DNA from: Mactra antiquata
Taxonomy: Eukaryota
Assembly: GCA_047288015.1 (NCBI GenBank)
Contig: CM103826.1
Span: 3,917,510-3,981,509 of the forward strand
DNA length: 64,000 bases
Reading direction: 5' to 3'
Position 1 is the stretch's first letter; every line of letters starts with the position of its first letter. Positions 832 through 51,339 of the stretch are shown one piece after another. The notes under the pieces were generated by a model. It did not search any database, had not been told where the DNA came from, and saw only the letters and a list, made by a program, of their open reading frames with translations. Made by a program: the position numbers and the translations under genes.

Positions 832-933
832 ATCAGCCTGGTATATCCGTGGTTGGATTACATTATAATATAAATCAACCAATGAATGGCCTAGAACATG
901 GACAAGTTGGTGTTGATATAAATACTAAAACTG
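832..933 (+). CDS. Gene 1 (CBM39-like + GH81 beta-1,3-glucanase) exon A: CBM39-like module part 1 (phase 1 in, phase 1 out). The upstream signal-peptide exon is not in the window.
   Basis: Acceptor ttacag|atcag and donor ctg|gtaagt. Translation DQPGISVVGLHYNINQPMNGLEHGQVGVDINTKTG. It is 95% nt-identical to gene 2 exon 2, and the phase is consistent with exon B. Confidence 0.75.
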
Positions 934-979
934 GTAAGTTTGCGTATCAGTCCCATGCATTTTAACATTGAATTTTACA

Positions 980-1202
980 GTCTACAGACGATAAAGTGAC
1001 CGATTAATATGACCAATGCTATGTTGTTAATAATTAGACATGTTGTTAAATTATATTTTCTATAATTATTTTTATTTCACGTTTTGGTACGTAAAATATG
1101 GTCAAGTGGTTAAAATCAAGTTATTTATTATTATCCATGCTTTGTTATGAAAAATCTGCTTGACAAAAACACAATTCAACTTACCGCCTGTGGACTATGT
1201 CG
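980..1202. mobile_element. MITE family with TIR GTCTACAGACGATAAAGTGAC, copy in gene 1 intron A/B.
   Basis: Ends gtctacagacgataaagtgaccg ... cttaccgcctgtggactatgtcg. Related copies at 33968..34196, 55200..55640 and 27893..27995 (partial). Confidence 0.65.
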
Positions 1203-1883
1203 TATATAACATAAAAACTCATTGTTACTGTAAAGCAGGTAACTGTCAGGTTGAATATACCACGAGATCAAAAGCTACAATACTAATCGAATAATGTAAA
1301 CAAATATCCTAGACTGAAGTAAAAAGTGGTTGGAAGTATCTTTAAGTTATTTCTTTGTCAAATTTCATTACACATAGACCAGTCAACGTAGAAAATTGTA
1401 AGCTTTCTACATAGTATCGAATCTTCACTCCAAGTAGCGTAGTTTTCTCAAAATTCGAGAAAAGCGCTTGACAATCAACGAAATATGCCGAACAAATGAG
1501 TAAAAGTAAAAAAGAACACTTAAAGCTGTAGAAAGGTCAAGGTTTTTTCGAATGCTTTGAAAGCCACGCAGCTGGTGGGAAAGATCTAATCCGTCGTGGA
1601 TATTTACATTTGCATTTGAATTTCTTTGTACTGCTAAAGGGAGCTGACATGTGAAATTTGGTACATCAATCCAATTTCTGTTACAATACAATGTACTTAG
1701 AAATACATTGTTAAGTTTACCATGAACCATTGGATGACGCAAAATATGCTAACATATCATGAAACAGTATGAAGTGTGTCCATGTTGTAAAACTGTTTGA
1801 TTAGAAAATGATATATTTATTTAACATGGGGTTCAATGAAAATTATAAACTACTCATTATTCATTTCATATTGATTGTTTCAG

Positions 1884-2174
1884 GAAATGCATGGGTACAT
1901 GAGAACCCTAAAGTTGCTGTAAAACCAGGAGATACTGTAAACTATTGGTATATTTCTATACAAAATGGAATAGGAAATCTGGTACAAGATCAAACATGGA
2001 CTCCTTCCGGAAATACAGTTACACCAACAGGAAGACCAACAACAACAAATACACCTACCGGAAGAACAACAATAGAAAGTACAACTTCCGGAAATACACC
2101 AACCGGAAGAACAACAATAGAAAGTACAACTTCCGGAAATACACCAACCGGAAGTACACCTACCGGAAGTCCTG
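1884..2174 (+). CDS. Gene 1 exon B: CBM39-like module part 2 plus an expanded Thr/Pro-rich linker.
   Basis: Acceptor tgtttcag|gaaatg and donor cctg|gtcagt. Translation GNAWVHENPKVAVKPGDTVNYWYISIQNGIGNLVQDQTWTPSGNT followed by TPTGRTTIESTTSGN repeats. Paralogous to gene 2 exon 3; phase 1 in and out. Confidence 0.75.
2051..2140 (+). repeat. Two near-identical in-frame 45-bp tandem units inside gene 1 exon B (15-aa TPTGRTTIESTTSGN repeat), flanked by degenerate copies from 2021 to 2173.
   Basis: Units acacc(t/a)accggaagaacaacaatagaaagtacaacttccggaaat at 2051..2095 and 2096..2140 differ at one position. Confidence 0.9.
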
Positions 2175-3107
2175 GTCAGTTGTTTCATATTTAACCCAAT
2201 CATCTGGTACTAATTACTGCAAACGTTGAAATAATTAATTCAGTTCGTACAATATTTTGAGATATTTACAGTAATTAAGCCAATTTGTTTACTGGCGGCG
2301 AAATTTGTCATATGTTCACATAACTTCTATTGTTTTCAAAGATTAAACACAATATACCGTAGCGTTACGAAGTAGATAAATAGAGTTTTATGTTGATACA
2401 TACTAGGGGGGTTCTATTTCGTCACCCTAAAGCAATTAATGAAATTAATGATGAACTTGGAATTGTAAACTACAGAAACATTTATTTTATTAGTAAATGA
2501 TTCATTAATATATTGTTCTATCAACGTTTTTAATTTATCTCGGAAAGAAACATAAGCATTCACAGTATAGAAGTCAACGGTGTAAATGCAGACGACCGTC
2601 ACAGTCTTGAGCATGCCCGTATGTCGTCACAGCAGAATAAAACTTAAAGTTTGTCCACTTACTTCATGAAAAGCATTCTGTTTTACATTAATGAGGAATG
2701 CTTAGGCCTATTACATTTTAAAAATCATATTTCTACAACTATATAAAAATGAAATCGTCAAAATCGTCCATTTGTAATGTTGACATATTTGCCGTAAGCA
2801 TAAACACGTAACTGGTGATAGTTTGTCTCTGCCCACAAAATAGCTCCGCCTAGCTGTTATATTTCGGACTAAAATTGGTGTTCAAGAATAATTCAGGGAA
2901 TTCTAACTTTACAACACTTAACACAGCTGTTTAATTTAAATACGATTGAGGTAACGAAATTAAGACCGTGACGAATTTAGGGTCTCGTACAACGAAATTC
3001 GGGACTTTTGATAGTCAACGTAAGCGTAGTCGAGATAAAGCGAAATGACTGTATCAATATATTATGTAAAACTGTATGAAATGGTATCTTTACCTGTAAA
3101 ATTTCAG

Positions 3108-3329
3108 ACACCGTCTTACCCAGAGATTGCGTGCCACTAGAGAATGGCGTATTGGACCAATTTGATCCTATGTCTGTCTTTCAACCAAACTCTGAGATAG
3201 GAACAAAACAACCACCAGTTAAAGTTAGGCCGGATATCCGTCCTAACAGACCATTGCCTACACAAGCTTTTTTCACGTCACAGCTGAAGTCTACTGGCGC
3301 TGGACCAATGGTTTTATGGCCATATTTTG
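3108..3329 (+). CDS. Gene 1 exon C: start of GH81 domain A.
   Basis: Acceptor atttcag|acacc and donor tttg|gtaagt. Open frame DTVLPRDCVPLENGVLDQFDPMSVFQPNSEIGTKQPPVKVRPDIRPNRPLPTQAFFTSQLKSTGAGPMVLWPYFG. This resembles the GH81 N-terminal PLPT..FF....W.PY region. Confidence 0.65.
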
Positions 3330-4563: not shown

Positions 4564-4758
4564 CTTCAATGGACAATGAAGGTATAACCTACGATGCCTT
4601 TGAATTTAGAAGATTTATGGATCCAGAGAGAACTATTCTAGCAGACCAACAATCTATGTCAGAAGATGGGAAACCTTGGAATCGTTTGTTTGATCTTGGT
4701 ACCAATTTCTTTCAGAAAGTCTCAGGACCTGATGGAAATCCACTGTCAGGATTTTACG
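4564..4758 (+). CDS. Gene 1 exon D.
   Basis: Acceptor tatag|cttc and donor ttttacg|gtaaaa. Open frame ASMDNEGITYDAFEFRRFMDPERTILADQQSMSEDGKPWNRLFDLGTNFFQKVSGPDGNPLSGFYG. Phase 1 in and out. Confidence 0.65.
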
Positions 4759-5061: not shown

Positions 5062-5171
5062 GTAAAAGTGGTGTCAAGGTCGGTATTGAAGGAAGTGCTG
5101 AACCGGAACTTGGAGACTTTGGTGATCTCTATGGTAACTTTAAATTCACCGGAAGTACTGGAACTCTTGAG
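5062..5171 (+). CDS. Gene 1 exon E.
   Basis: Acceptor tatcccag|gtaaaag and donor cttgag|gtaatt. Gly-rich open frame GKSGVKVGIEGSAEPELGDFGDLYGNFKFTGSTGTLE. Phase 1 in, phase 0 out. Confidence 0.55.
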
Positions 5172-5540: not shown

Positions 5541-5673
5541 GTACCACTTGTTAGAGGATCAATCTTACTGACACATATATTTGATAATGCTAACCCTGTG
5601 ATCACACCTTTCTGTTTGGACAATATCAATGGTGGTGACTCACAGAATTTTTACTGTCCACTGAACCCTGCAG
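5541..5673 (+). CDS. Gene 1 exon F.
   Basis: Acceptor attatttcag|gtacc and donor cctgcag|gtatat. Translation VPLVRGSILLTHIFDNANPVITPFCLDNINGGDSQNFYCPLNPAG. Phase 0 in, phase 1 out. Confidence 0.65.
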
Positions 5674-5699: not shown

Positions 5700-5993
5700 C
5701 ACCCGCGCTCCACCTGGTTAACTCAGTCGGTAACACATCTGCATACCGATCCTGGGGTCGCGAGCTCGATTCCCGGGCGGCTGCATACATTCGTTGAGTT
5801 TGGTCACGAAATACTTTCTAACTCCATTCTCACCCCTGACAGAGCAGTAGGTTACCCACTGGCGAAGGTATGTGCTTAGTACTGGTTAAAAGACTAGGAA
5901 TAGAGATCTAAGCCTCTCCAGGAACAATGAGTATGTCGACTGACAGCCACGATATGACTGAAAAATGTCGAAAAGCTGCGTAAAACACCATAA
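5700..5993 (+). mobile_element. tRNA-derived SINE, family C. It shares its core with family A but has a distinct tail: ..aaagcttaggtctag.tctaagcctctccagg..gtgagtaggttgactgaccgccgcgatatgactgaaaaattgtcg..gcgtaaagcacc.
   Basis: Head, core tttggtcacgaaatactttcta and tail are all present. Related copies lie at 22214, 31750, 34822, 49728 (minus) and 60520 (minus). Confidence 0.8.
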
Positions 5994-6609: not shown

Positions 6610-6834
6610 CCACTAATGGAGGAAGTGGTTATCTTAGTGGTGAATGTACTGGTTCAACTCTTACAATCACACTTCATAATACAAGACCTATAACAGATAT
6701 AAGTTTGATACAATGGGCTGCTAACACGGCATCACAGTATGGTTCAAGTCATGCGATGCATAATTGTGATGAATCACATTGTCGTCTGCTGGAGAATGGA
6801 CAAAGACTTGATATTACCGTCCCTAACGCACATG
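6610..6834 (+). CDS. Gene 1 exon G.
   Basis: Acceptor aaatgcag|ccact and donor cacatg|gtaagt. Open frame ATNGGSGYLSGECTGSTLTITLHNTRPITDISLIQWAANTASQYGSSHAMHNCDESHCRLLENGQRLDITVPNAHG. Phase 1 in and out. Confidence 0.65.
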
Positions 6835-10235: not shown

Positions 10236-10496
10236 GTAAAGGTCATATCACGGCGGTCAGCCACCTAACTCATCGATCCTGGAAATACTAAATCTCTGGA
10301 TTTAGCTGTTAACCAGTTACTAGACGCATACTTCCGTCCGTGACTGACAACTGCCCTACATGATTTAGAATGGGAGAATGGTCGTAGAAATTTTTTCATG
10401 ACCAAGCCTCACAAAAGTATGCCCCGCCCGGGAATCGAACCAACGACCCCTCGGTCAGTAGACTTGTGCGCTTCAGACTGAGCTAGTCAGGCGGGC
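10236..10496 (-). mobile_element. SINE family A copy (minus orientation).
   Basis: Reverse complement of the family A consensus from tail ggtcatatcacggcggtcag to head ..gagctagtcaggcgggc. Confidence 0.85.
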
Positions 10497-11558: not shown

Positions 11559-11830
11559 GCACGATGTATTTCGCAATAAATTACATAGCTAATTACGTGA
11601 TACCCGGAGACTGGATAAACAAACCACAAGAAGTCACGTGTACCACTAGTGGTAAGAGAGAATCAAGTGGTATGGAATCTGATTTAGCAGAAGGGCGCGT
11701 CGGTAATCAAGCTATCAGACGCGAAAAGAGAGGGGTAACTGACATTGGATTGAATGCCACTTGTGATGCATCCAATACGATTAAGATCGCCTTGAATTTA
11801 GCTGACTACAGTAATATTAAATCTGAAAAG
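11559..11830 (+). CDS. Gene 1 exon H.
   Basis: Acceptor tgtttcag|gcacg and donor gaaaag|gtaggt. Open frame GTMYFAINYIANYVIPGDWINKPQEVTCTTSGKRESSG...IKSEK. Phase 1 in, phase 0 out. The 4.7 kb intron upstream carries repeats. Confidence 0.6.
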
Positions 11831-12700: not shown

Positions 12701-12828
12701 ATTCAATACGCTGTTGAACATGCAAACAACTGGGGTAACCCACCTCCTATGAGGAATTGTGGATCAATGTGCACTATAAGTGGAAACGTCGTAACCATCC
12801 GAAAACAGATGAATTCGAATCATTTAAA
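12701..12828 (+). CDS. Gene 1 exon I.
   Basis: Acceptor ttgttgacag|attc and donor ttaaa|gtaagt. Translation IQYAVEHANNWGNPPPMRNCGSMCTISGNVVTIRKQMNSNHL. Phase 0 in, phase 2 out. Confidence 0.6.
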
Positions 12829-13198
12829 GTAAGTATTTTAATCATTGAAGCACGCATAGAACAAGAAAAGTTTGTCATGGAGTCATCAAAAATCGGTCTT
12901 ACCAGACCACCTCGGTCATGTCGGCTTTTTCCGTAAAAGGTTAGAATGAAAATGTTGTAGAAATTTGGTGACTATTGCAAATCGGTCTTAATTGAATATA
13001 GAGCATTAGATGACTTAGATGAATCACCATTACATGATACAATCAATGCTGTGCAATTGGGGCGACCAAATGGTACCAAGTCTAGGAAACAAACACACGT
13101 TTTCTCGAAATGGTGCTTAAGAATACGAAAAAATGTGTAAAAGAGACCAATAGTTACTAGCTTCTTTAAAGTTAAATCGTATCGTAAAAATGTTCTTA

Positions 13199-13393
13199 GC
13201 CCGCCGGCTAGATCAGTCGGTAGCGCACAAGTCTACTGATCGAGGGGTCGTGGGTTCGATCCCCGGGCGGGGCATACTTTCGTGGAGCTTGGTCATGAAA
13301 TAGTTTCTACGGCCATTCTCCTTCCTACCACTGATTCTAAATCATGTAGGGCAGTTGTCAGTCACTGACGGAAGTATGCGCCCAGTAACTGGT
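13199..13393 (+). mobile_element. SINE family A copy (3' truncated).
   Basis: Head gcccgccggctagatcagtcggtagcgcacaagtctactgatcgaggggtcgtgggttcgatccccgggcgggg plus core. Confidence 0.85.
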
Positions 13394-13921: not shown

Positions 13922-14175
13922 ATTTGCCATAAATGTAATAGGACACATTGTACTACCATTTCAAAATTGGATCAGTCAACCACTTGAAATAACATGTGGA
14001 ATTGGTCAAGTAGTACGCTATGGTAGTTCAGGACTAGAAATTGACAACGAAAACGTAGGAACGACTACGACGAAAAAAACAACATCTACCACAACACAGG
14101 CAGTAACATCACAGCCTCCAGAGACACAAGGAACGACCTCTCATCAACCTATTACTCAACAACCTACAACCACTG
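13922..14175 (+). CDS. Gene 1 exon J, ending in a second Thr-rich linker.
   Basis: Acceptor attacag|attt and donor cactg|gttggc. Translation KFAINVIGHIVLPFQNWISQPLEITCGIGQVVRYGSSGLEIDNENVGTTTTKKTTSTTTQAVTSQPPETQGTTSHQPITQQPTTTG. Phase 2 in, phase 1 out. Confidence 0.6.
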
Positions 14176-15174
14176 GTTGGCATTTCTTTTTTACCATTGT
14201 TATTAATAGAAAAAATCGAAGTCATTTAAACAAACAACTTATATTTAACATCATCCACACACCTGCTTATAGCACTAAGGGAGACAATATGATGTTCGTA
14301 AACTTTGAACGATATCTCTTGTTTGTGCATGATACCTGACAAACCGCCATTTTGTGTTCTACTAAAAGCAATATTCATATTAATATAATAATTAAATATG
14401 TCATATTAAATTCACATACCGATTTTATAATTATCAGGATAAACAAATCAAACATGTGACAAAACAGTTCGGATACACTGGTTTCCGGATTTCTCAAGTT
14501 ATTTTGCGTTCGAAATGGGACCGAGAAATAAGCTCAGAATTCATGGGATTTCGGATTTCTCAGGTAGTCCTGTATTATTTTTTGTTTTGTTTCATTCTTC
14601 AAGGCACAAGTAACACTGGACCCATACCTCCCGACAGAAAGTTCATTTTGGAACTTAATGAACAAGGGACCTCGTTACCACAACAGACAAGAAAGTACGC
14701 ATTGTATTTTAGCCAGGCAGTGACGCCACAAATACGCAAATCTGACAACAAAGTAGTCTTCGTTCCAAAATCTGGAGGTCTTTTCAATGGAATCATGCAA
14801 GTGGCGTATCTAGGTAAAATATTATTGAATATATTAACGGAAGCCTTTAATGCGGTTTATGGTGTTATTATTCTTGATGAAGGGAGAAATACCAAGTATG
14901 CGCTTTGTGCACCGCCTAAAAAGTAGTTCCCATCGCAAGAAGTGGGCGTGGCCAAACAATAATGATGTTGGACTGATAATTATTTGATAGTCAGCTTCGC
15001 GATGCATTGAATGTCATCCAACTTCCAAGCCCATCTCGTTGATTCCTTGAACAAGAAACTTTATCCTAAATGCTTAGTACTGAGTGACCAGGAAGCTCAC
15101 TCAATAGTAATTGGTTAGGTTGGCATAATTGTTTCACAATATTTGTATAGACTAAACTTAAATTTAACAGTCAG

Positions 15175-17057: not shown

Positions 17058-17359
17058 TGTTGAGTTTAATGCCGTAGCAACACATTGTATAGGTCATATC
17101 ACGGCGGCCAGTCAACCTACTCATCGTTCCTGGAAAGGCTTAATCTCTGGATTTAGCTGTTCACCAGTTACTAAGCGCATACTTCCGTCAGTGACTGACA
17201 ACTGTCCTACATGATTTAGAATCAGTCGTAGGAGGGAAAATGGTCGTAGAAAATTATTTCATGACCAAGCTCCACGAAAGTATGCCCCGCCCGGGAATTG
17301 AACCCACGATCCCTCGATAAGTAGATTCGTGCGCGACCGACTGAGCTAGCCGGGCGGGC
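17058..17359 (-). mobile_element. SINE family A copy (minus), immediately after gene 1 exon M.
   Basis: Full-length reverse complement of family A including the tail ..gcaacacattgtataggtcatatcacggcggccag. Confidence 0.85.
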
Positions 17360-18333
17360 TGCCACGAATATTCGAGTATTCGAGTAAACCTACAGACATG
17401 CAGTTTCAGTGATGTAAATGTAGGCCTAACTTACTGCATGTAATACTCTGTGATTTAAACAACTAGCAGCTAAGATTATGTTTTCTGTCTCCTCTGAGGT
17501 CTATAATTCTACATTGACAGTTCAGAGATTTCTCACATACATAACGTTATACATCATAGCTTCAAGAACTATGATGAAGGTTTGCCTGAGCTGTAATAGC
17601 AAAATACACGTATAAATACTTCGCAAACTTTTATGAAATATATAATTCTAATTATCAAATTAATATCAGCAAAGAGAATTCTCCCTCCGCCCCTGACATT
17701 ACGTCCTACGAGCTCGTGGATAATGCATAGGGCCGAGAATAAATGGACGTACGTGGTTTCGACTAAATTTTGATCTCTCATCTGACGCCGGGTTCGTATT
17801 TCATGTTTGCAGGTTAACTGGTAAATGTATAGATCTTTAAAATAAGGCTTAATTTCTGCGCAATATATCAGCTTATTAAAAACATACTTGTCCATGTTCA
17901 TTAAAAATTACTTGACCTTTGTCAAACTAGAGAAATTGTCAATAACATTCGAGTGAGAGACTCATGGCGTTTTATATTGACACCTACGCTAAAACAAGTG
18001 TCAGTCACAAATATGTGTTGATCGAACTTCAGTCTGACGAAGATATGTGTACAATATTGAGGCAAAAAATCGTATTGTACTGTATCTAAAACTCGAACTA
18101 TTGCCAATTGTTCAGCCAATTTATTCACACGCAGTGTATTCTGAGAAATCCGAACGTCTTCAGACCGAACGAAATGTTTGGTTTTTACAGGTTTCTAGAT
18201 TTCTCGGGTTTTCTTTCCCCAAGATCGGCCTGAGAAAATCGATCGTAATTTAAAGGATTCCGGATTTGTCAGTGTTCGTATTTCTCAGGTTACGCTGTAT
18301 ATATATTAACTAATGGTCTACTCTGTTTTTAAG

Positions 18334-18525
18334 ATGTATTGGATGACATGTGGAAGTTTAAATACGATACTGTATGGGGTGGTTTATTCTTGAAGGCAAC
18401 ACGTGGTGAGGTACAGTTTGGTGCAGGCTTTGGGTTTCCATTTTACAATGATCATCATTTTCATCTTGGATATTTTATATATGCTGCTGGTTATTATGTT
18501 AAACATTATCCTGATTGGGGATCAG
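18334..18525 (+). CDS. Gene 1 exon N: GH81 signature exon (YNDHHFH motif).
   Basis: Acceptor tttttaag|atgt and donor atcag|gtaaga. Translation DVLDDMWKFKYDTVWGGLFLKATRGEVQFGAGFGFPFYNDHHFHLGYFIYAAGYYVKHYPDWGS. FYNDHHFH(Y/L)GYxIYAAA is a hallmark of GH81 endo-beta-1,3-glucanases. Confidence 0.85.
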
Positions 18526-19029: not shown

Positions 19030-19271
19030 GTTTCTGCTACAGAACAGAACATAGACATAAACTACATCTATGAACTAGAGATTGAATAGTCTTTCTGTTA
19101 CAGAACATAGACATAAACTCTATCTATGGGCTAGAGATTTCATACTCTTTATGTTACAGAACATAGACACAAACTCTATCTATGGGCTAGATATTTAATA
19201 CTCTTTATGTTACAGAACATAGACACAAACTCTATCTATGGGCTAGATATTTAATACTCTTTATGTTACAG
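19030..19271. repeat. 56-bp minisatellite in about 4 units, each carrying the ttacag|aacatagac acceptor of exon O.
   Basis: Acceptor g at 19159, 19215 and 19271 (period 56), plus a degenerate earlier unit. Confidence 0.9.
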
Positions 19272-20065: not shown

Positions 20066-20372
20066 ACGCCCGGCTAGCTCAGTCGGTAGCGCACAAGTCT
20101 ACTGATCGAGGGGTCGTGGGTTCGATTCCCGGGCGGGTCATACTTTCGTGGATCTTGGTCATGAAATAATTTCTACGGCCATTCTCCCTCCTACCACTGA
20201 TTCTAAATCATGTAGGGCAGTTGTCAGTCACTGACGGAAGTATGCGCCTAGTAACTGGTTAACAGCTAAATCCAGAGATTTAGCTTTTCCAGGAACCGTG
20301 AGTAGGTTGACTGACCGCCGTGATATGACTTATACAATGTGTTGCTACAGCGTTAAGCCAACAACAACAATA
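20066..20372 (+). mobile_element. SINE family A copy (full length, with tail ..gtgagtaggttgactgaccgccgtgatatgact..).
   Basis: Best-preserved copy; the consensus was derived from it. Confidence 0.9.
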
Positions 20373-20504: not shown

Positions 20505-20822
20505 AGTCTAAATTGTTATCATGGAGTTGCCGCCCTTGGTGAAGCATTTAATGACAAGAAGTTACAACATGTTGGACAAACTATGTTAGCCATGGAACTT
20601 ACTTCCGTAAGAGAGTATTGGCAAGTTCGAGCACATAATAGAGATCATTTCCCACCACTTATACAAGATACAGGTGTATGTGGACAGATAACTGAGGATA
20701 GCTTTTATGTGTACACATTAAATTGGCCATGTGAACCTAACGTATTTCCAATGAGACATGCATGCCTGGTAGGAATACAAGTCATTCCTATAACAGCTGT
20801 ATCAAAGTATTGGGTTGATCAG
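20505..20822 (+). CDS. Gene 1 exon P (GH81 alpha/alpha barrel region).
   Basis: Acceptor ctactttatag|agtc, which is the first ag after the in-frame stop at 20502..20504. Donor gatcag|gtaaca. 106 codons open: SLNCYHGVAALGEAFNDKKLQHVGQTMLAMELTSVREYWQV...VSKYWVDQ. Confidence 0.7.
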
Positions 20823-21484: not shown

Positions 21485-21592
21485 GAATGGGCAGCTTCCA
21501 TCAAGCATTCTTGTGAATCGGCAGTACATTTCAATAGAGAAAGTGAATATTCAATAGCTGACAAACAACAAAGGGATCGCAAGCTTGCCGCG
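21485..21592 (+). CDS. Gene 1 exon Q.
   Basis: Acceptor aaattgcag|gaatgg and donor gccgcg|gtaagt. Translation EWAASIKHSCESAVHFNRESEYSIADKQQRDRKLAA. Phase 0 in and out. Confidence 0.5.
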
Positions 21593-22213: not shown

Positions 22214-22516
22214 CTAGCCCGCCCAGTTAGCTCAGTCGGTGGAGCGTCTTCCTTTGAATCCAGGGGTTTTGTGTTTGAGTCCCAGGCAATACCCACGTAC
22301 TTTCGTGAAATTTGGTCATGAAATACCTACTACGGCCATTCTCTCTCCTACCACTGTATCGTGTAGGGCAGTTGCAATCCACTGGCGAATGTATGTGCTT
22401 AGTTCTGGTTAAAAGCTTAGGTCTAGTTCTAAGCCTCTCCAAGGACAGTGAGTAGGTTGGCTGGCGATCGTGATGTGACTAAAACTGACGGAAAAGCTGC
22501 GTAATGTACCATAAAG
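22214..22516 (+). mobile_element. SINE family C copy in the gene 1 R/S intron.
   Basis: Head cccgcccagttagctcagtcggtggagcgtcttcc..., core and family C tail. Confidence 0.8.
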
Positions 22517-22896: not shown

Positions 22897-23049
22897 GGAT
22901 GGGCAGCATTTTGTCTAGCAGCATTATCACCATTAGATGCCAGTCATAAGACAGAAGCTGCTAATTTCTTACAGGACAAGAATGCTCGTGATCTAGTTGG
23001 AGGTACTGGGGCTGCTAGTACATTACTGTTTATATATGCTAGTACATAG
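22897..23049 (+). CDS. Gene 1 candidate terminal exon S (stop TAG at 23047..23049).
   Basis: Acceptor cattgtag|ggatgg lies immediately after a small palindromic MITE. 51 codons open: GWAAFCLAALSPLDASHKTEAANFLQDKNARDLVGGTGAASTLLFIYAST*. Phase 0 is compatible with exon R (short form). Confidence 0.4.
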   Translation, partial: GWAAFCLAALSPLDASHKTEAANFLQDKNARDLVGGTGAASTLLFIYAST

Positions 23050-30400: not shown

Positions 30401-31204
30401 CAGGATCCCCCAACCCTCCCTACTTGGATCCGTCACTGACATCTGATTCTGTTTCCCTATATAATGAATAACAGTGTTGATTAGTATTTCATTAAAACTC
30501 TGAAGCTAGTTGGGATTCAAGAAATATGGTAAGTAAACAAATTTTTTTTAAATATATTCTATAAAGAAAATTTATATGTTTGTACTTTATTATTTATTAT
30601 ATTAAACTATTATTTTAATGGTCCTTTTGTGTTATATATCTTACTGATAATTTATATGTAATATGATACCTTGATTTTATTATTAGCTACATATTTCATA
30701 TAGAATATCAGATCATAAAGACGTATCATCTATAAGAAAAATGTTATTATCGCTGTCTGTGACAAGTTCATTCAACAGCACAAGTAAGTTGCTAGGTTAT
30801 CAAACGTAGCAACCAGGTTGGCAACCTGAGAGTCTATATGTAAAACCGACCGAGCCATGCATGCTACGTAAATTATTATATTAACGTTGAACAACTGCGT
30901 TATGTATGTACAGTGTTGTTTCTAACTCAAACTGACTTAAGTCAGAAGTTAAAAGTCATTCTCGTGAGAGAACGAATCTGGTGAAAGCTGTAATTTCCAT
31001 GCTCAGGTTTGATGAATTATTTATTATGTCCATTATTTATACAAATTGGATGAATACAGTATTTCATGAATATATTTCATTTATCAGTTGCAGCAATAAT
31101 TTCCTACCAGCCTCCAAAAACATTGTCAATGTTACTCGATGTTATACTGGAATGTTGGCAGTAACGAAAGATGTGCCTATAGCCTCTTTTTGGCAACTTA
31201 GCAT

Positions 31205-31220: not shown

Positions 31221-31243
31221 GTTCTTGTTCATGATTTTAGAAA

Positions 31244-31355
31244 ATGAAGTTATCACACATTGTGTCGACCATTGTCTGCTGGTTTGTGACAGTGTCAGCA
31301 CAAAATGCTGAGTTCAGTTTGTTACAACCCCAAGGATTGAAATTTTCACTGCCAG
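31244..31355 (+). CDS. Gene 2 (CBM39-like + GH16 beta-1,3-glucanase) exon 1: start codon and signal peptide.
   Basis: ATG at 31244 is preceded by an in-frame TAG two codons upstream. Translation MKLSHIVSTIVCWFVTVSAQNAEFSLLQPQGLKFSLP(G) has a hydrophobic core and an AQ-type cleavage site. Donor ccag|gtaaat; phase 1 out. Confidence 0.8.
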
Positions 31356-31749: not shown

Positions 31750-32012
31750 ACGCAGTCCGTAGTGCGTCTGTCTTTGAATACAGGGGTCGTAGGTTCGATT
31801 CCCGTACGAGACCTTCATACACTCTTACAGTTTGGTCATGAAATACTTTTTACGGCAATTCTCCATCCTACCGCTGTATGGTGTATAGCAGTTAAAAGTT
31901 CCGGTTAAAAGCTTAGGTTTAGGGATCTAAGCATCTCCATTGGTAGCGAATATGTCGACTGACCGCCGCAATATGACTGAAAAATTGTCGCAAAGTGGCG
32001 TAAAGCACCATG
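31750..32012 (+). mobile_element. SINE family C copy in gene 2 intron 1.
   Basis: Core and family C tail present; head partly truncated. Confidence 0.8.
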
Positions 32013-32091
32013 ATATATTTAATTTACCAAATATTGATTGAATATAAATATGTATAATTATATTTATTTCAATTTCTCTCATATATTCCAG

Positions 32092-32193
32092 ATCAGTCTG
32101 GTATATCTTTGGTTGGATTACATTATAACATAAATCAACCAATGAATGGCCTAGAACATGGACAAGTTGGTGTTGATATCAATACTAAAACTG
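32092..32193 (+). CDS. Gene 2 exon 2: CBM39-like module part 1.
   Basis: Acceptor attccag|atcag and donor ctg|gtaagt. Translation DQSGISLVGLHYNINQPMNGLEHGQVGVDINTKTG. Paralog of gene 1 exon A. Confidence 0.85.
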
Positions 32194-32639
32194 GTAAGTT
32201 TATATGAACTACAGCATATTTTATTTGCTTTCAATATTATTGTTTAGCACACGGGCGATATGGTTAATTATATTACCAATGCACCGTTGCTATTGATAGA
32301 ATTGTATTAAACTAAACCAAATATCTGTTGGCCCCAGTGCATTCACAATTTTTCAACAATAAATTTAACATATCCTTCCGCACCCTATTTGAATAGCTAA
32401 TAAATGTTCGCTCAATTATTAGTCATTCGCCACTTTAGAATAATTTGTTAACTAATGGTTGCACTAAACTTGTTTTTGAGCTAAGCTATAGGCAAATAAA
32501 TTAAGCTGTTTGTGTTTTCAATGGAACTATTTTAGGCGATATCAGGAAGAGAAGTAAGAGAAAAAAAACAACATTCAAAATTTCACGTACCAGATCCGAA
32601 ACAATACCTACGACTGATGAGTCAGTCTAGCTAAACTAA

Positions 32640-32800: not shown

Positions 32801-33374
32801 GGCGATGACAAATATCTCGTTTTAGTCTATAAATTTTAACAACACGACTCACTGAGCTCGCTAAACATTGTTCAGACATTCATATAGCATCAAAATATTA
32901 TTATGCTAAGCCCTGTGTGTTTACGACAAGAACTAATTAGTGTAAATTGTTGTGTGCTTCGCCAGTGTTTTGCCTCGCGTATGTAGCAAAAACCCATGAA
33001 ACTTGGTGGACCTCCTACGAATCCTTGCGGATTTATTCGTCGTATGAATTGGTCGAAGTGTTCTAAATGGCTTCATAATTATCAGACTGATTCTTTATTT
33101 GCTTGCGTTTATCGGCACGCCAACACAAAAAGGTCATGTCGCTATCAGACTGATCAGCTTATAGAAAATCTTTTACACATGGTCATGGATTATACAGAGT
33201 CCCATTCTCGGAACTCGGAGGTTATTAAAACATAGTTGATCTTGTTAGAATCAAGTATTTTCTAAGTGAACCTCTGACTTGTCTTGTGAGAATGACGTCC
33301 TTGACGTGGTTCATTATTTTCGTCTCTAATGTTCATAATAAACTTATTATTTATTATTATATTGATTGTTTCAG

Positions 33375-33509
33375 GAAATGCATGGGTACATGAGAAAACT
33401 AATGTCGCTGTAAAACCAGGTGATACCGTATACTTTTGGTATCTTGTTGTTAAGAATGGAATAGGAAGTCTGGTAAAAGATCAAACATGGACGCCTCCTG
33501 GAAGTACCG
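33375..33509 (+). CDS. Gene 2 exon 3: CBM39-like module part 2.
   Basis: Acceptor tgtttcag|gaaatg and donor taccg|gtcagt. Translation GNAWVHEKTNVAVKPGDTVYFWYLVVKNGIGSLVKDQTWTPPGSTG. It resembles the insect betaGRP N-domain (CBM39) motif [28 protein letters not shown]. Confidence 0.85.
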
Positions 33510-33967
33510 GTCAGTTGTTGTCATATATTTTACTATCTCAGCTTGAAATAATTACGACAAATTACACGAGTACTAAATTTATTCAATTATAACAAGCTTT
33601 TGCGAGAAAAATATTAGGTCAATTTTATATACCCTTCCATGAAAACTCGACAATAGTGTCGATTTTCCTCCATTAATAAGGTATATGGAGCAGTAGGCTA
33701 GGCTAGGATTTCGAATCTATTGTCCCGAAGGGATTGCTGATTCGATTGAAAATGTTTTGTTGCTTCTGGAGATGTACTGTCACGATATGACTTAATTAAT
33801 GTTAATTAAAACATCCACGTGGCACTTAATAGACTATAATGTCAGTTTACATAGGGCTCAATTTTTCAGCTAACGCAATATTAACCTTTTTGTTAGCTGT
33901 GGAATTAAGTGGTATATAAAACTTATAAGAATTATTTTAATGAAATATTTTTCACTGTTCGTAGGTA

Positions 33968-34305: not shown

Positions 34306-34493
34306 GTCCAATAACAACATCAACAAAAGGTCCAACGGCAACAACAAAAACTGAAGGCCCCACCCAACCACCACAAACCACGTCTAGACCAACATCAAAT
34401 CCGTCTAACTACCCTCGTTTGATATTTGAAGACAATTTTGACACCTTGAACCTTGATGTATGGGAACATGAGATTACTGCCGGTGGTGGAGGA
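34306..34493 (+). CDS. Gene 2 exon 4: Thr/Pro linker plus start of the GH16 domain.
   Basis: Acceptor ctatag|gtcc and donor ggagga|gtaagt. Translation GPITTSTKGPTATTKTEGPTQPPQTTSRPTSNPSNYPRLIFEDNFDTLNLDVWEHEITAGGGG. Phase 1 in, phase 0 out. Confidence 0.85.
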
Positions 34494-34821
34494 GTAAGTT
34501 AATTATATATTTACTCTGTAAATTTGTTTTATACTTAGTCGATAGCGCAGCCGACTGTCTTCTTCTTCTATGGTAATGGCTATCAGTCATTACTGACTAC
34601 ATTATGACCATGCGTGGGGTGTTAGTAAAAGTGAGCTACCAGACCCCCTCAGCTACTAAATCCATCAAGGGGATACTGGTAGTGTGATAAAATAGGAGCA
34701 AAACCTAAACTTCTTAACAACCTTAAAATGCCCTTAAGTCTACAAATACACTACTAAGTGCAGAGAGAGAGAGAGAGGTTGGCAATTGTTAAAATCAGGA
34801 TAAAAAGAGTGTGTTCTATTT

Positions 34822-35078
34822 AGGGCTGCATCAATACGGGGGCGTCGGTTTGATTCTCGGAATAGCCTAAATTGTTTCGTGGATTTTGGTTACCAACTGC
34901 TTTCTACGACTATTCTTCATCCTACTTCTGTATCAAATAGGGCAGTTGTCAGTCGCTGGCTTAGTACTGGTTAGATGCTTAGGACTAGAAATCTAAGCAT
35001 CTCCAGCGATTGTGACTAGGTCGACTGACCGCCGCAATGTGACTGAAAAATTGTCGGCAGAGCAGCATAAAGCATCGC
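34822..35078 (+). mobile_element. SINE family C copy in gene 2 intron 4.
   Basis: Head gggctgcatcaatacgggggcgtcggtttgattctcgg, core and family C tail. Confidence 0.75.
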
Positions 35079-35160
35079 ATTCTCGGAACCCAGAGGTTAT
35101 CAAGACATAGTTAGATCGACTATGTCTTGATAACCTCTGGGTTCCGAGAATGAAAGCATC
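35078..35160. mobile_element. Small palindromic MITE (31-bp perfect inverted repeat ttctcggaacccagaggttatcaagacatag / ctatgtcttgataacctctgggttccgagaa). Other copies at 22836..22890, 33196..33295 and 35696..35762.
   Basis: Perfect hairpin-forming inverted repeat with an 11-bp spacer; dispersed copies. Confidence 0.7.
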
Positions 35161-35260
35161 GTAAACCAACCGTAACTCAAACCGTTTTAAAAACCGTTTA
35201 TAGCTTATACACATTTCTTCAATATATATCTCTGGACATGATAGTTTTATCTTTTTTCAG

Positions 35261-35335
35261 AACTGGGAATTCCAGTATTACACTAACAATCGTAGTAACA
35301 GCTATGTTCGTGATGGAAAATTATTTATTAAACCA
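35261..35335 (+). CDS. Gene 2 exon 5 (GH16).
   Basis: Acceptor cttttttcag|aactgg and donor aaacca|gtaagt. Translation NWEFQYYTNNRSNSYVRDGKLFIKP, a classic GH16 laminarinase N-terminal motif. Confidence 0.85.
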
Positions 35336-35799
35336 GTAAGTATATTTCTTATGTAACATATTTTATTATGATAGTTAAAACTGACTATAATGGTAATATT
35401 CATTCAATTTCAATGAAAAGGTGTTGTTTAGCGAGCAATTGTCCAATATGAGTGCTGGTGATTCCATACGCACTGAACTGTCCTGCACGTTACCCAAGGG
35501 TTCTTGTCGTCTACCATTTACTCTGTGACTAATCATGCATATCATTCGAGATTGCTCTACTTAAAAACGCATTTCTACAAATTTCCTGTCAACCTGTCAC
35601 AAAATGCATTTCCTGCCACTGCATGTAGGACACTTTTGCTAACAAAGCAAGCACGCATGTGTGGTTGTAAAAAAAAGACCCTGCTATTATCTTTATCACC
35701 ATTCTCATAACCCAGAGGTTATCCAAATAAGAATTGTGATAGTCTCTAGGTGCGAGAATGATTTTCACAGACAAAATTCTGTCTAAAGCCGCTGTTGCC

Positions 35800-36045
35800 T
35801 GAGTCATAAATACTAAATCCCGTGTGTCCACGGTCCAATGATAAGTACGACGGTCTTCTAATCTGGCGATCCGAGTTCGATTACCGGCCGTGGCAGGTCG
35901 TACCCTTTCGTGAAAATTCGACAATAATGTTGATTTTCCTGAGTATATGGTGTAATGTCGACTCCTTGTGGAATGGTGAGCGAGAACTGGTACAGAAAGT
36001 AGTCAAGGAAAACATATTGATTGGGTGAGTCGGTCGCTGTTAGAA
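35800..36045 (+). mobile_element. SINE family B copy in gene 2 intron 5.
   Basis: Head ..cgagttcgattaccggccgtggcaggtcgtaccctttcgtgaaaattcgacaataatgttgattttcc plus body. Confidence 0.75.
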
Positions 36046-36157
36046 AATGAAAAATAAAAGTTGATAAATGGCGTAATATCCAAATAAATTTAATTTGATT
36101 TAACAAATATACTTAAGTTTACAAAAAGATATTGAACTTTCAAATATTTTCTTTCAG

Positions 36158-36224
36158 ACATTTACGGTGGATACGCTGAATCGTGGACCTGATGGTTTAA
36201 CACAAGGGTCTTTAGATTTATGGG
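36158..36224 (+). CDS. Gene 2 exon 6 (GH16).
   Basis: Acceptor ctttcag|acatt and donor tatggg|gtacgt. Translation TFTVDTLNRGPDGLTQGSLDLW(G). Phase 0 in, phase 1 out. Confidence 0.7.
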
Positions 36225-36239
36225 GTACGTAGGAATAAA

Positions 36240-36570
36240 GTTTAATTTGCCACGAAAATGCCGTGATATTATTTAGTAAATTAGTAATGATGAGTTATTA
36301 CTAGTTAATTAGGAATTATGTATTATTTTTAGTCAATTAGTAATCGTGTATTATTTTTTGTTAATTAGTAATTATTTTAATTAATTAGTAATCGTGTATT
36401 ATTTTTTGTTAATTAGTAATTATTTTAATTAATTAGTAATCGTGTATTATTTTTTGTTAATTAGTATAATCATTTATCATTTCTAGTTAATTAGTAATTA
36501 TGTATTATTTTTAATTAATTAGTAGTCATGTATTATTTTAGTTGATTAGTGATTATGTATCATTTATTGT
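36240..36570. repeat. AT-rich tandem repeat (ttaattagtaatcgtgtattattttttg plus ttaattagtaattatttta) in gene 2 intron 6.
   Basis: About 49-bp compound unit repeated about 6 times. Confidence 0.85.
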
Positions 36571-36577
36571 TTTGAAG

Positions 36578-36760
36578 GTTCCTTGCCAGGCGATGTGTGC
36601 ACTGGAAATGGTTGGTGGGGATGTCGACGTGATGGTTCTCCAAATAATATCCTCAATCCTATACAGTCTGCTAGATTAAGAAGTTCCCGTGGTTTTAATT
36701 TCAAATATGGTAAAGTGGAAGTAAGGGCAAAAATGCCAAAAGGAGATTGGATATGGCCTG
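36578..36760 (+). CDS. Gene 2 exon 7 (GH16).
   Basis: Acceptor ttttgaag|gttcc and donor gcctg|gtatgt. Translation GSLPGDVCTGNGWWGCRRDGSPNNILNPIQSARLRSSRGFNFKYGKVEVRAKMPKGDWIWP. Confidence 0.85.
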
Positions 36761-36917
36761 GTATGTTTATTAAATATTTATTGTTAATGAATGTCAAGTA
36801 CTAGTATATGATAATTATTATTATATAATAATTATAGAGTTCTAAACTTTTACTTGATATGTTTATAAAATTACAATGTAAACCGATTGGGTTCACTGAA
36901 ATCAAATTAATTAAAAG

Positions 36918-37315
36918 CTGCGGTCGTGACCGAGTGAAAAGAGCGCTCGACTACGGATCATAAGGCCCCATGTTCGAACCCCAGTCGTGGCAGGTTATAC
37001 CCTTCCATTAAACTTTGACTAATAATTGTCTATTATCCTCCTCTATATCCTCCTTTTCCTCCTTTGTCGAATTTTTATAGAAGGGTATTACCAGCCCGGG
37101 TGGGACTCGAACCAGACCCCCGTCGCAGCAGACCAAACTCTTCCATGAAAATCTAATATTTAATATAGATTTTACTCAGCAGAGGGAGAAGTTTTCGGCT
37201 CCTTGTGGAAGGGTAAGCAAGTACTGGTTAAAGAAAAGTGTCCAGGAAATCCGGTTAGGTTAGTCGGCCGCCGTACATAACCTTAACATGTGTTGATAAA
37301 CGTCGTTAAATCAAA
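36918..37315 (+). mobile_element. SINE family B copy with duplicated head in gene 2 intron 7.
   Basis: Two tRNA-like heads followed by the family B body ..ccttgtggaagggtaagcaagtactggttaaag..gttaggttagtcggccgccgtacataacc. Confidence 0.7.
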
Positions 37316-37396
37316 TTTTAAAAAATAAGTTTATTTGGCATCTACTCTGGCAATAAGAATTCCCGTATTAACATGTGGCATGTTTTAAAAAAGACA

Positions 37397-37675
37397 CCTG
37401 CCTGGCTAGCTCAGTCGTTGCGCGCAAATCTACTGATCGAGGGGTCATGGGTTCGATCCCCAGGTGGGGCATACTTTCGTGGAGCTTGGTCATGAAATTA
37501 TTTCTACAGCCATTCTCCCTCCTACCACTGATTCTAAATCATGTAGGGCAGTTGTCAGTCACTGACGGACGTATGCGCTTAGTAACTGGTTAACAGCTAA
37601 TCCAGAAATTTAGCCTTTCCAGGAACGGTGAGTAGGTTGACTGACCTATACAATGTGTTACTACGGCGTTAAACC
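37397..37675 (+). mobile_element. SINE family A copy in gene 2 intron 7, ending about 75 bp before the catalytic exon 8.
   Basis: Head cctgcctggctagctcagtcgttgcgcgcaaatctactgatcgaggggtcatgggttcgatcccc plus core and tail. Confidence 0.85.
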
Positions 37676-37750
37676 CAAAACAAAACACAAAAATTATAAA
37701 AAAGACAATTGCCTTTGTGACACTGATGCTACTTAGTATTGTTTCTTCAG

Positions 37751-37828
37751 CTATTTGGATGTTACCACTAAGAAATGCTTATGGAAAATGGCCAGCATCA
37801 GGAGAGATCGATATTGTTGAAGTCAGAG
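37751..37828 (+). CDS. Gene 2 exon 8: GH16 catalytic exon (ExDxxE).
   Basis: Acceptor gtttcttcag|ctatt and donor cagag|gtaggt. Translation AIWMLPLRNAYGKWPASGEIDIVEVRG. E-I-D-I-V-E is the GH16 nucleophile / acid-base motif and is intact. Confidence 0.9.
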
Positions 37829-38484
37829 GTAGGTACATGCAGTTGTTGAAATTTGTTATACATTTGTAACTCATTTTGTTTGCTTTACTTACCTATTTAA
37901 ATATACGAAGGGAGGTAATACAGCGTCCAGTAGTACTACTACTTAGTTAACTTCCTTACACCAGGACGCGTGCAAATAAACCTTTAGAATGGGTTTCATG
38001 CTTAATACGCAGTTTCGTTCTAAATAGATTTCCTTTTAAACTATTGCAAATTGATTTATTGTTTTCCACTATCAAAAAGGTACTGTTCGAGGACGACAGT
38101 AAGTTTTAAATTTGAGCATAGAATCAGTTCTCAACTGTTATATAACCTCAGATCCAGGATATCATGTACAAGTACTTATTTCATACTCATTGATTGTTTT
38201 ACAAGTTTGTTAAAAAGAACTTAAACATTTACCATCCACGAAGTCTACTCAGTACAAACATATACCCGCCTTCCTTGAAATGAGACCTTAACAATACTAT
38301 ATACCTTATATATATATAAGTTCATCCATTGTAAGACATTGAATCACGTATGTCAGTTGGTATTAATGGACTTCGAAAGCTTTGTATATACATCTATAAG
38401 CCAACGTATTGCCTTCATCAAGATTCTATTCTTAACATTAATTCAAATACATATATATCAAATTGTCTTTTACATTCTAAATAG

Positions 38485-38602
38485 GTAACGCCAATTATCG
38501 TAATACAAATGGTCATTCAAAGGGTATAGACAATGCTGGCAGTACTTTACATTTTGGATCAGACTTCTGGCATAATAAATTTTACAAAGCTCATGGTGAT
38601 AA
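38485..38602 (+). CDS. Gene 2 exon 9 (GH16).
   Basis: Acceptor taaatag|gtaacg and donor gtgataa|gtaagt. Translation GNANYRNTNGHSKGIDNAGSTLHFGSDFWHNKFYKAHGDK. Phase 1 in, phase 2 out. Confidence 0.8.
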
Positions 38603-39386
38603 GTAAGTTTTTGTCTTTAAGAAATTCATTTGTACATATCGAAAGTTGGGAATGGAATTTTGATGTAAAAAGAAACTAATCAACCCATGTCAATGAAAAT
38701 TATGAATACAATTTGTATAATAATGCAGTTCGTTTCATTGGAAGACCAAAGAAAAATGACTTGTTCCTGATTCAAGGGATTTGGCAAATTGAAAATGCTC
38801 TATGTTCATTACTACTAGGGTGTCAGAAACGCAACTGGGTCAAAATGTTCCCTGGGCAATCGTCTTTCAAAAATATCAATTTTTTGGACCCAAATCTCGA
38901 CTTCCATGGTTGGAGCAGAGAAAAATGAGCTGAGAAAACCACAAGTTTTTGCACTTTGCAACCTCGAATTGCATTTCAGACGGCTGAGGGTTCTTGAAAT
39001 GATGCCTAAAGTGCTAGTGGTTTTCACTTAGTTTTTAGAGCCTCAAAGCATGCTAAATTATCACCATTTCGCGCCATTTGCCTGCACCTAACAACTTAGC
39101 AATCAGGGACGCTCTACTCCCTTCATACCAAAAGCACAGCGGAAGACACATACACCTTCCCTCTGGGACTCCTGAGGTTATCGTTTCGTGGAGTGGCCCT
39201 TGAAAAAATGTCAACTTTTTATAAACAACTTTCCATAAGGTTCACAATTTATAAAATCTGTGAATGAATCTATCTACCATAGGCTTTTTATAAATCTGAG
39301 CAATACCACTTTCTCTTCTGTTTTTGTTATTTTCATGCATGATCAATAAATATGCTATCAATGTGCTGTTAATATGTATTTTTTAG

Positions 39387-39458
39387 AATGGCTGACCAAG
39401 GCACTTATGCTGATGGTTTTCATATCTTTGAACTGATTTGGGATGAAAATCACATTAG
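39387..39458 (+). CDS. Gene 2 exon 10 (GH16).
   Basis: Acceptor attttttag|aatgg and donor cacattag|gtaagt. Translation (K)MADQGTYADGFHIFELIWDENHI. Phase 2 in and out. Confidence 0.8.
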
Positions 39459-40583: not shown

Positions 40584-40716
40584 TGCATCAATTGATGGTA
40601 CAAGAGTAATGAATGTTGAACCAAGACAAACAATGTGGGAATTTGGTGGATTGGATAAGGATAACGTAGATAATCCATGGGTTGGTGGAAATAAAATGGC
40701 TCCTTTTGATCAAGAG
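40584..40716 (+). CDS. Gene 2 exon 11 (GH16).
   Basis: Acceptor tactgtttcag|tgcatc and donor caagag|gttagt. Translation SASIDGTRVMNVEPRQTMWEFGGLDKDNVDNPWVGGNKMAPFDQE. Confidence 0.8.
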
Positions 40717-40920
40717 GTTAGTACAACAGTCTGAGGGGCACCAATGTGGTTTACATACACACTTTGAACATATCAGGTCAAAATTTTCTGCGACTGCGGT
40801 GCAGTGGTTAGCATACTCAATTCCCAACCATAAAATTTGCAACTATTAGGATGACCAGCTTATTCTATCCTTGTAAAACACTTGAGTGCATCAGATAGCA
40901 CAAAAGTGTTTTGGTTTTTA

Positions 40921-51303: not shown

Positions 51304-51339
51304 CTGTATTAAAAAAAATGGATAAACACAATATTAATA

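Follow-up and report, generated by a model that had tools for sequence, protein, structure and literature searches.

In a 64-kb stretch of the genome of the surf clam Mactra (Coelomactra) antiquata (assembly GCA_047288015.1, contig CM103826.1, positions 3,917,510 to 3,981,509), hereafter the window, a gene termed gene 1 appears to encode a glucan-binding module of family CBM39 followed by a glycoside hydrolase of family GH81. We estimate a probability of roughly 0.8 that the two are parts of one genuine fused transcript; the splicing of the CBM39 exons onto the GH81 exons is deduced from gene structure rather than from transcripts. A neighbouring CBM39-GH16 gene, gene 2, lies 30 kb downstream in the same orientation. 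All positions are numbered on the window, in which both genes are on the plus strand, and the DNA is AT-rich (GC content about 0.35), with short exons and GT-AG introns.

Gene 1 corresponds to the deposited M. antiquata model ACF0H5_016633 (P0001), a "hypothetical protein" of 1177 residues. Its 19 exons in the window reproduce residues 38-1177 of P0001 with zero mismatches, and all are open and flanked by AG/GT sites. The exons and the junction intron are arranged as follows:

832-933, plus strand: exon 2 (exon A), CBM39 residues DQPGISVVGLHYNINQPMNGLEHGQVGVDINTKT(G), with the Asp49-equivalent codon within 906-923; identified by translation, AG/GT sites and Pfam CBM39
1884-2016, plus strand: first part of exon 3 (exon B), C-terminal half of CBM39, with the Trp76 equivalent within 1940-1957
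2017-2174, plus strand: second part of exon 3, an open Thr/Pro/Gly-rich linker of 52 codons ending at a phase-1 GT donor
2175-3107, plus strand: junction intron separating the CBM39/linker exon from the GH81 body, acceptor at 3106-3107
3108-3329, plus strand: exon 4, with which the GH81 body starts, DTVLPRDCVPLEN...WPYF; homologous to the CBM39-less paralogue P0002 from its residue 19 on
4564-4758, 5062-5171, 5541-5673 and 6610-6834, plus strand: exons 5-8, N-terminal region of GH81 and start of a mollusc-specific insert; exact match to P0001
11559-11830, 12701-12828 and 13922-14175, plus strand: exons 9-11, rest of the duplicated immunoglobulin (Ig)-like insert and a Thr-rich spacer
14604-14813, plus strand: exon 12, a conserved 70-residue exon of the GH81 N-domain, GTSNTGPIPPDRKFILELNEQ...MQVAYL, within PF03639
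15482-15678, 16301-16462, 16799-17000, 18334-18525 and 19272-19429, plus strand: exons 13-17, GH81 core
20505-20822, 21485-21592 and 22897-23049 (stop included), plus strand: exons 18-20, GH81 core

The module at the N-terminus is a bona fide CBM39 domain, as seen from profile search, sequence match to solved structures, predicted fold and key residues. The spliced translation of 832-933 and 1884-2174 reads DQPGISVVGLHYNINQPMNGLEHGQVGVDINTKTG and, across the exon boundary, NAWVHENPKVAVKPGDTVNYWYISIQNGIGNLVQDQTWTPSGN, followed by the Thr/Pro-rich linker. The original prediction had placed a CBM39-like module at 832-2174, and the module is indeed there, but only ~80% of the domain falls within this segment; an exon upstream of the window start encodes the first 37 residues of gene 1, with the signal peptide and the first strand (MKLSHIVSTIACWFVTASAQNAEFSLLQPQGLKFSLP). 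A tblastn search of the window revealed exactly one second copy of the module, at 32091-32195 and 33371-33505 in gene 2. Against the hidden Markov model of Pfam family PF15886 (CBM39; gathering threshold 25 bits), the N-terminus of gene 2 scores 85.8 bits (E=2e-24; 82.8-85.8 bits overall for gene 2) and full-length gene 1 scores 82.2 bits (E=2.7e-23), with matches spanning positions 3-96 of the 107 in the model, while the in-window part of gene 1 alone reaches 62.4 bits. Both genes thus lie well above the cut-off, and the predicted resemblance to CBM39 is borne out.

Sequence search of the PDB using phmmer returned five N-domains of insect betaGRP/GNBP3 proteins (E=3e-17 to 4e-15) and no other significant match. 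We also predicted the structure of the gene 2 copy of the module by AlphaFold2, with a mean predicted local distance difference test (pLDDT) value of 93. In a Foldseek search of this model against the PDB, the nine best matches are all betaGRP/GNBP3 N-domains, with template-modelling (TM) scores of 0.84-0.92 and a root mean square deviation of 0.8-2.1 Å, headed by 3ie4, 3aqy, 3aqx and 3aqz (TM 0.89-0.92); the fold comparison that the prediction had called for agrees with the profile search. The next family is CBM56, with a TM score of 0.68 for 5t7a by Foldseek and an E-value of 0.013 for CBM_56 in Pfam. Asp49 and Trp76 of the N-domain of Bombyx and Plodia betaGRP are highlighted as glucan contacts in reviews of the laminarihexaose complex (PMC7915573, PMC6272582). 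Their equivalents in the module are D47 and W74, and both columns are invariant in the two clam copies and in every alignment made.

Two details of the original prediction needed correction at this level. The first half of the module string that it quoted fits both copies, but the second half, VKPGDTVYFWYLVVKNGIGSLVKDQTWTP (…VYFWYLVVKNGIGSLVKDQTWTP), is that of the gene 2 copy at 33371-33505, whereas the text of gene 1 at 1884-2016 reads VKPGDTVNYWYISIQNGIGNLVQDQTWTP. Likewise, the alignment to insect betaGRP, described as holding position for position, reflects similarity far beyond chance but contains a one-residue register shift around DINTKTGNAW.

Compared to the insect betaGRP/GNBP3 N-domains (3IE4, 3AQX/3AQY/3AQZ, 2RQE and 2KHA), the clam module belongs to the same family, with 35-37% identity and a TM score of about 0.9. 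In both groups it forms the N-terminal domain behind a signal peptide and keeps the Asp49 and Trp76 positions. In the insect proteins the module is followed by a GH16-like domain that is catalytically dead, and it sets off the prophenoloxidase and Toll cascades, whereas in the clam it precedes an apparently active GH81 in gene 1 or a GH16 of the active type in gene 2, as judged by sequence motifs. A betaGRP/GNBP receptor is defined by CBM39 together with a GH16-like domain that lacks the catalytic residues. As gene 1 has a GH81 partner and gene 2 retains the GH16 catalytic motif, neither should be classed as a receptor of this type on present evidence.

The GH81 body of gene 1 matches the GH81 C-domain (PF17652) with 180 bits and the N-domain (PF03639) with 50.6 bits (cut-off 25.6), so that Pfam places CBM39, PF03639 and PF17652 in one gene structure, which is consistent with the predicted fusion. 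It also resembles the solved Rhizomucor GH81 RmLam81A (PDB 4k35/5xbz) with a phmmer E-value of 1.5e-27. The segment YNDHHFHLGY (18444-18473) aligns to ysdhhyhqgy of 4k35 with the Asp of DHH retained, and QEESASE (from 19409; qEEsasEs against dqEsvpEs of 4k35) keeps the Glu pair of the E-S-x-x-E motif. This Asp and the Glu pair correspond to the catalytic residues of GH81 in the structural literature on RmLam81A and BhGH81. In the literature searched, no biochemically characterised mollusc GH81 was apparent. The exon at 14604-14813 is left out of the deposited ACF0H5_016633 model. It is phase-symmetric and, since it is present in the paralogue and in orthologues and aligns to RmLam81A, the real product of gene 1 is probably 1247 rather than 1177 residues long.

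Two further observations concern the GH81 body. Residues 389-643 (exons 6610-6834, 11559-11830, 12701-12828 and 13922-14175) form an insert of ~255 residues with conserved cysteines that occurs in all mollusc GH81s and matches no Pfam family. Its two halves are tandem duplicates of each other (34% identity, E=2e-10). The predicted structure, with a pLDDT of about 90, consists of two Ig-like beta-sandwiches and a disordered connecting loop, and Foldseek returned only generic Ig/FnIII-like matches for the model. Wang et al. 2020 state that 25% of mollusc GH81 genes carry "a CBM", the type of which is not named in the text; this insert might be that unnamed module. In addition, at 19038-19271 four to five tandem copies of a ~56-bp unit contain the acceptor and the first codons (EHRHKLYLWA) of exon 19272, creating potential decoy acceptors directly upstream of the real one.

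Several features of the junction point to splicing of the CBM39/linker exon onto the GH81 body. The exon B donor at 2174 and the acceptor before 3108 are both of phase 1, and the donor lies at a position homologous to that of gene 2, with 2156-2223 resembling 33491-33561. Downstream of the junction, the GH81 reading frame stays open over 17 exons, the splice sites are canonical and the catalytic residues are retained. Immediately upstream of exon 3108 an in-frame TGA is found at 3077-3079, and in-frame translation reveals no ATG before the acceptor at 3106-3107. The paralogue P0002 (ACF0H5_016708) has its own signal peptide, MELVKICAILSLSQVVGS, followed by VPRDC…; the Mercenaria orthologue also has its own, and there the counterpart of exon 3108-3329 begins with the codons for its second half, a part that is gone in gene 1. 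Within 2175-3107, neither tblastn with the paralogue N-terminus nor a scan of open reading frames and donors yielded a credible signal-peptide or alternative start exon. An independent GH81 start just before exon 3108 was also considered and ruled out, codon 3077 being TGA and the ATG at 3081 lying out of frame.

The CBM39 exons themselves appear to be maintained. Between gene 1 and gene 2, synonymous divergence (dS) is 0.22, nonsynonymous divergence (dN) 0.09 and dN/dS 0.42 over 78 codons. The exons are conserved and the introns unalignable, which together with this ratio argues that the CBM39 exons of gene 1 have been kept under constraint. Moreover, gene 1 has a private in-frame linker of 52 codons (156 nt), absent from the CBM39 exon of gene 2, in which a 45-bp (15-codon) unit is repeated 2.5 times at 97% identity according to Tandem Repeats Finder. 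A Thr/Pro linker is what one expects to separate a CBM from a catalytic domain, and at a C-terminus it would serve no purpose, hence its presence favours fusion.

Some observations weigh against a functional fused product. For the splice junction from 2174 to 3108, a linker-free query spanning CBM39 and the GH81 N-domain found the gene 2 product and one GH81 fragment but no transcript-derived fusion fragments, and exact-sequence look-ups of P0001 and P0002 returned no record. The annotation pipeline of M. antiquata mixes ab initio, homology and RNA-seq evidence (PMC11897284), and the deposited model is wrong in at least one place, where it skips exon 14604-14813, so the model is not proof of the fusion; exon 1 of gene 1 lies outside the window and is known from this model only. 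If left unspliced, exon B would stop after seven more codons (GQLFHI*), giving a secreted CBM39-only protein of a type known in insects. CBM39-GH81 is seen in one species, so conservation lends no support. Finally, the residue two before the key Trp, an aromatic position, is Asn in gene 1, as also in P0019; in Dreissena, Lingula and Owenia the same position is His.

Several of these points would also fit a merged gene model, in which the 5′ end of gene 2 was duplicated in truncated form as exons A and B, which are not spliced to GH81. Exons A and B would then encode a CBM39-only secreted protein or represent a decaying fragment, with the GH81 either a 5′-truncated pseudogene or a gene with an unrecognised start exon. 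The pipeline that mis-modelled gene 1 by an exon skip does include ab initio predictors, no transcript evidence was found for the junction, read-through past exon B ends after seven codons, and CBM39-only proteins are common in insects. We nevertheless regard such a merge as unlikely. A promoterless pseudogene at a dS of about 0.2 is not expected to stay open over 17 exons with its catalytic residues, and upstream of 3108 there is an in-frame stop but no ATG, and no signal exon in 2175-3107. On the CBM39 side, gene 1 has kept the exon B donor, which is homologous in position and compatible in phase, the 52-codon in-frame expansion is sensible only if more protein follows, and dN/dS is 0.42. 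An assembly artefact, by which the gene 2 5′ end came to be copied before GH81 through a mis-join or a collapsed duplication, is very improbable: two CBM39 copies 30 kb apart in the same orientation do make a region prone to assembler error, but they differ at 5-15% of exon positions with unalignable introns, as befits old paralogues rather than duplicated reads, gene 1 has its private 156-nt linker expansion, and the assembly combines HiFi and Hi-C data at a quality value of 54.9 (PMC11897284).

A lineage-specific chimera made by exon shuffling, with a secreted, glucan-targeted GH81 as product, is the likely origin of gene 1 and explains the whole best. Gene 2 evidently is the donor of the 5′ exons, as suggested by exon-level similarity: exon 832-933 shares 95% nucleotide identity with 32092-32193 of gene 2, and the CBM39 part of exon B (1884-2016) 85% with 33342-33507, with introns unalignable apart from the splice-site flanks. 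Gene 1 bears the hallmarks of a chimera, namely an identifiable donor paralogue, symmetric phase-1 boundaries and the loss of the recipient's own 5′ exon. The protein identity is 86% between the GH81 bodies of gene 1 and P0002 and 84% between the CBM39 modules of gene 1 and gene 2, a similar divergence for both duplications. In Mercenaria the GH81 gene does not adjoin the CBM39-GH16 gene, and therefore adjacency is not the obvious ancestral state.

We propose that the start and signal exon of a duplicated mollusc GH81 endo-beta-1,3-glucanase gene was lost, and that three 5′ exons of the neighbouring CBM39-GH16 gene, encoding the signal peptide with the first strand, the first part of CBM39 and its second part, were copied. 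These exons, presumably together with the promoter, would have come to lie upstream of the GH81 duplicate, or the reverse. As all boundaries are of phase 1, the copied exons could be joined to the first GH81 exon still present without a shift of frame. The GH81 signal sequence may then have decayed, and the 52-codon Thr/Pro linker would have grown through tandem repetition where the last copied exon ends. The predicted product is a secreted protein of ~1247 residues, consisting of a signal peptide, CBM39, a probably O-glycosylated linker and GH81 with the double Ig-like insert. We found no relic GH16 exons after exon B and no further CBM39, GH81 or GH16 fragments in the window.

Gene 2 has 13 exons between 30526 and 41359, which reproduce exactly the deposited P0262, "3-glucan binding protein [Mactra antiquata]", of 497 residues:

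30526-30528, 31241-31355, 32092-32193 and 33375-33509, plus strand: exons 1-4, start codon, signal peptide and complete CBM39
34306-41359, plus strand: exons 5-13, Thr/Pro linker and GH16, with the stop at 41357-41359

Its GH16 domain scores 51.8 bits against PF00722 and has an intact ExDxxE motif, WPASGEIDIVE, at 37801-37821; the predicted fusion of CBM39 to a catalytically intact GH16 is thus supported by the retained GEIDIVE. Compared to gene 1, the CBM39 of gene 2 is 84% identical and does not differ in exon phases or signal peptide, but the partners differ, GH16 being a retaining enzyme with a beta-jelly roll and GH81 an inverting enzyme with an alpha/alpha-6 barrel. Orthologues in Dreissena and Lingula likewise combine CBM39 with GH16 bearing the same intact motif. 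By these motifs, CBM39 with active-type GH16 is the normal lophotrochozoan state and is not novel, and gene 2 is an ordinary member of this clade. The dead GH16 that had been cited as the classic arthropod partner of CBM39 holds for insects, but Dreissena, Lingula and Owenia reveal a wider range; the association reflects a bias of the insect literature. The annotated start of gene 2 is a 3-nt coding exon, the ATG at 30526-30528, spliced to AAAATGAAG… at 31241 to give MKMKLSH…, compared to the gene 1 model, which starts at the second Met (MKLSH…).

The CBM39-GH81 combination is apparently unique so far, as far as sequence searches extend. A search with full-length gene 1 found no CBM39 in 16 other mollusc GH81 proteins or fragments, namely those of the Mactra paralogue, Ruditapes, Mercenaria, Dreissena, Mya, Pomacea, Batillaria, Haliotis, Lottia, Patella, Lymnaea, Pinctada, Elysia (two species), Plakobranchus and Tegillarca, nor in the JGI protein P0015 returned by the same search. 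CBM-less mollusc GH81s, such as ACF0H5_016708 and those of Ruditapes, Mercenaria, Mya, Dreissena, Haliotis, Lottia and others, share the double Ig-like insert and the catalytic motifs with gene 1, but unlike it have their own signal peptide and no CBM39. A further bivalve GH81 contig encodes its own signal half, with no CBM39 within 8 kb upstream. As a separate observation, the GH81 orthologue at ~17150-17240 of the bivalve contig ENA ERZ25074796 has an in-frame stop in the conserved exon encoding TLTIT*HNTRPI, which could be a pseudogene or a sequencing error.

Searching from the side of CBM39 gave the same picture. A HMMER scan of 1.84 billion representative sequences with the module yielded 251 matches, and among the long members of the 150 CBM39 representatives listed there was no CBM39-GH81. 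Listed matches of at least 850 residues were scanned with Pfam, except P0127 (2220 residues, 14 matched stretches), and those scanned are multi-CBM39 or GH16 proteins except P0148 of Owenia; in a set clustered at 50% identity, a recent fusion can go unseen behind a CBM-less representative, as evidently happened to P0001. Among 13 environmental CBM39 loci, all eight with readable downstream sequence run into GH16, and no CBM39-GH81 was present. When an alignment of clam and insect CBM39 modules was used as a profile against a 5.8-billion-protein database, only short CBM39-only fragments from insects came back; P0001 was not among them, and the search is uninformative on architectures. Outside arthropods, CBM39 was found in Dreissena, Lingula, Pomacea, Bulinus and Owenia. 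The Owenia fusiformis protein CAH1800781 (P0148) has an N-terminal CBM39, a G8 domain, a CEMIP beta-helix and CEMIP domain X, and is apparently undescribed. It is the only other CBM39 with a non-GH16 partner that we found; as in gene 1, the module follows a signal peptide at the N-terminus of a lophotrochozoan protein, but the partner is a CEMIP-type beta-helix annotated as hyaluronoglucosaminidase instead of GH81.

The literature searched describes neither a CBM39-GH81 fusion nor CBM39 in molluscs. The claim of novelty made in the original prediction therefore stands in that no other such fusion was found in the proteins, loci and literature searched, but it needs qualifying, as the protein is already public, if unnamed: it is deposited as an M. 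antiquata model with precomputed Pfam CBM39 and GH81 matches. The combination is undescribed rather than unseen.

CBM39 recognises long, triple-helical beta-1,3-glucans via a flat convex face (PMC3975366, PMC7915573), and the Bacillus halodurans enzyme BhGH81 also engages triple-helical glucan (PMC8949617). Without its CBM6 and CBM56, the activity of BhGH81 on curdlan falls 3- to 6-fold, and Paenibacillus PsLam81A without CBM56 loses 2.4-fold on curdlan and nothing on laminarin (PMC9609564). We propose that in gene 1 CBM39 would dock on structured, triple-helical or insoluble beta-1,3-glucan and hold the inverting GH81 domain there, with a larger gain in activity on particulate glucan (walls of algae or fungi, paramylon, curdlan-like material) than on soluble laminarin. 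By analogy, we infer that the protein should bind glucan in the diet with this effect on activity, be secreted, and act in the tissue in which mollusc GH81 is reported to be expressed, the hepatopancreas (PMC7560691); a digestive role there is the most likely setting. The bacterial GH81 laminarinases (B. halodurans BH0236, GH81-CBM6-CBM56; PsLam81A, GH81-CBM56) use the same tethering to a beta-sandwich that binds beta-1,3-glucan, and CBM56 is also the family that the clam module matches next best, both in structure and in Pfam. However, their modules belong to another CBM family and are C-terminal, and the fusion arose independently in prokaryotes, making them analogues and not relatives of the clam protein.

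The same fusion might instead serve immunity, binding beta-1,3-glucan of fungal or oomycete walls via CBM39 and lysing them with GH81, perhaps with soluble glucan fragments set free as signals. Insect betaGRP/GNBP3 receptors use CBM39 for recognition (PMC7915573, PMC6272582), the annotation of the donor gene reads "glucan binding protein", and GH81 enzymes act on fungal wall glucan (PMC9609564). Yet mollusc GH81 and GH16 laminarinases are reported as digestive enzymes expressed in the hepatopancreas (PMC7560691, PMC7551256), and lophotrochozoan CBM39-GH16 proteins keep their catalytic residues, so that CBM39 looks like an ordinary enzyme-targeting module there and not like a sensor for immunity. 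We consider an immune role improbable, if still worth some weight, and a little less probable again its sharpest form, a single-polypeptide "recognise and destroy" effector against fungi or oomycetes with a beta-glucan recognition domain grafted onto a wall-lysing GH81. Under that reading, the symmetry of the CBM39 exons (phase 1-1) could also allow exon skipping to switch CBM39 on or off in the mature protein. The digestive role thus remains the preferred one.

Two other features of the window stand apart from the two genes' products. A short interspersed nuclear element (SINE)-like repeat of ~230 bp occurs in at least 11 copies on both strands, mostly in introns of genes 1 and 2, and ARAGORN calls no tRNA in it. 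The similarity between 504-588 and 31782-31870 was considered as shared intron ancestry, which was ruled out because it stems from this dispersed repeat. The copies, on both strands, are:

440-700, 5710-5837, 10282-10496, 13198-13393, 17133-17363 and 20067-20289: copies 1-6
22296-22403, 31782-31870, 37397-37619, 44161-44291 and 60649-60728: copies 7-11

On the minus strand, open reading frames at ~47000-54400 (e.g. VFGHLADKLGRKPIMLITLYMP) resemble an organic ion transporter of the SLC22/major facilitator superfamily type, an unrelated neighbour gene.

Altogether, gene 1 is a new pairing of two well-understood modules in the familiar design of a binding module plus an enzyme, and it leaves the understanding of how CBM-enzyme fusions work unchanged, with some biotechnological interest for the production of laminari-oligosaccharides. 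If the fused transcript is genuine, it would provide a clean case of animal exon shuffling that can be dated and whose donor gene still lies nearby, the first animal GH81 with a CBM, and one of only two cases found in which CBM39 serves a non-GH16 catalytic partner; under the immune-effector reading it would be the first CBM39 driving a non-GH16 hydrolase. It would also support the view that CBM39 was originally an ordinary enzyme-targeting module of protostomes, later co-opted for immune sensing in insects.

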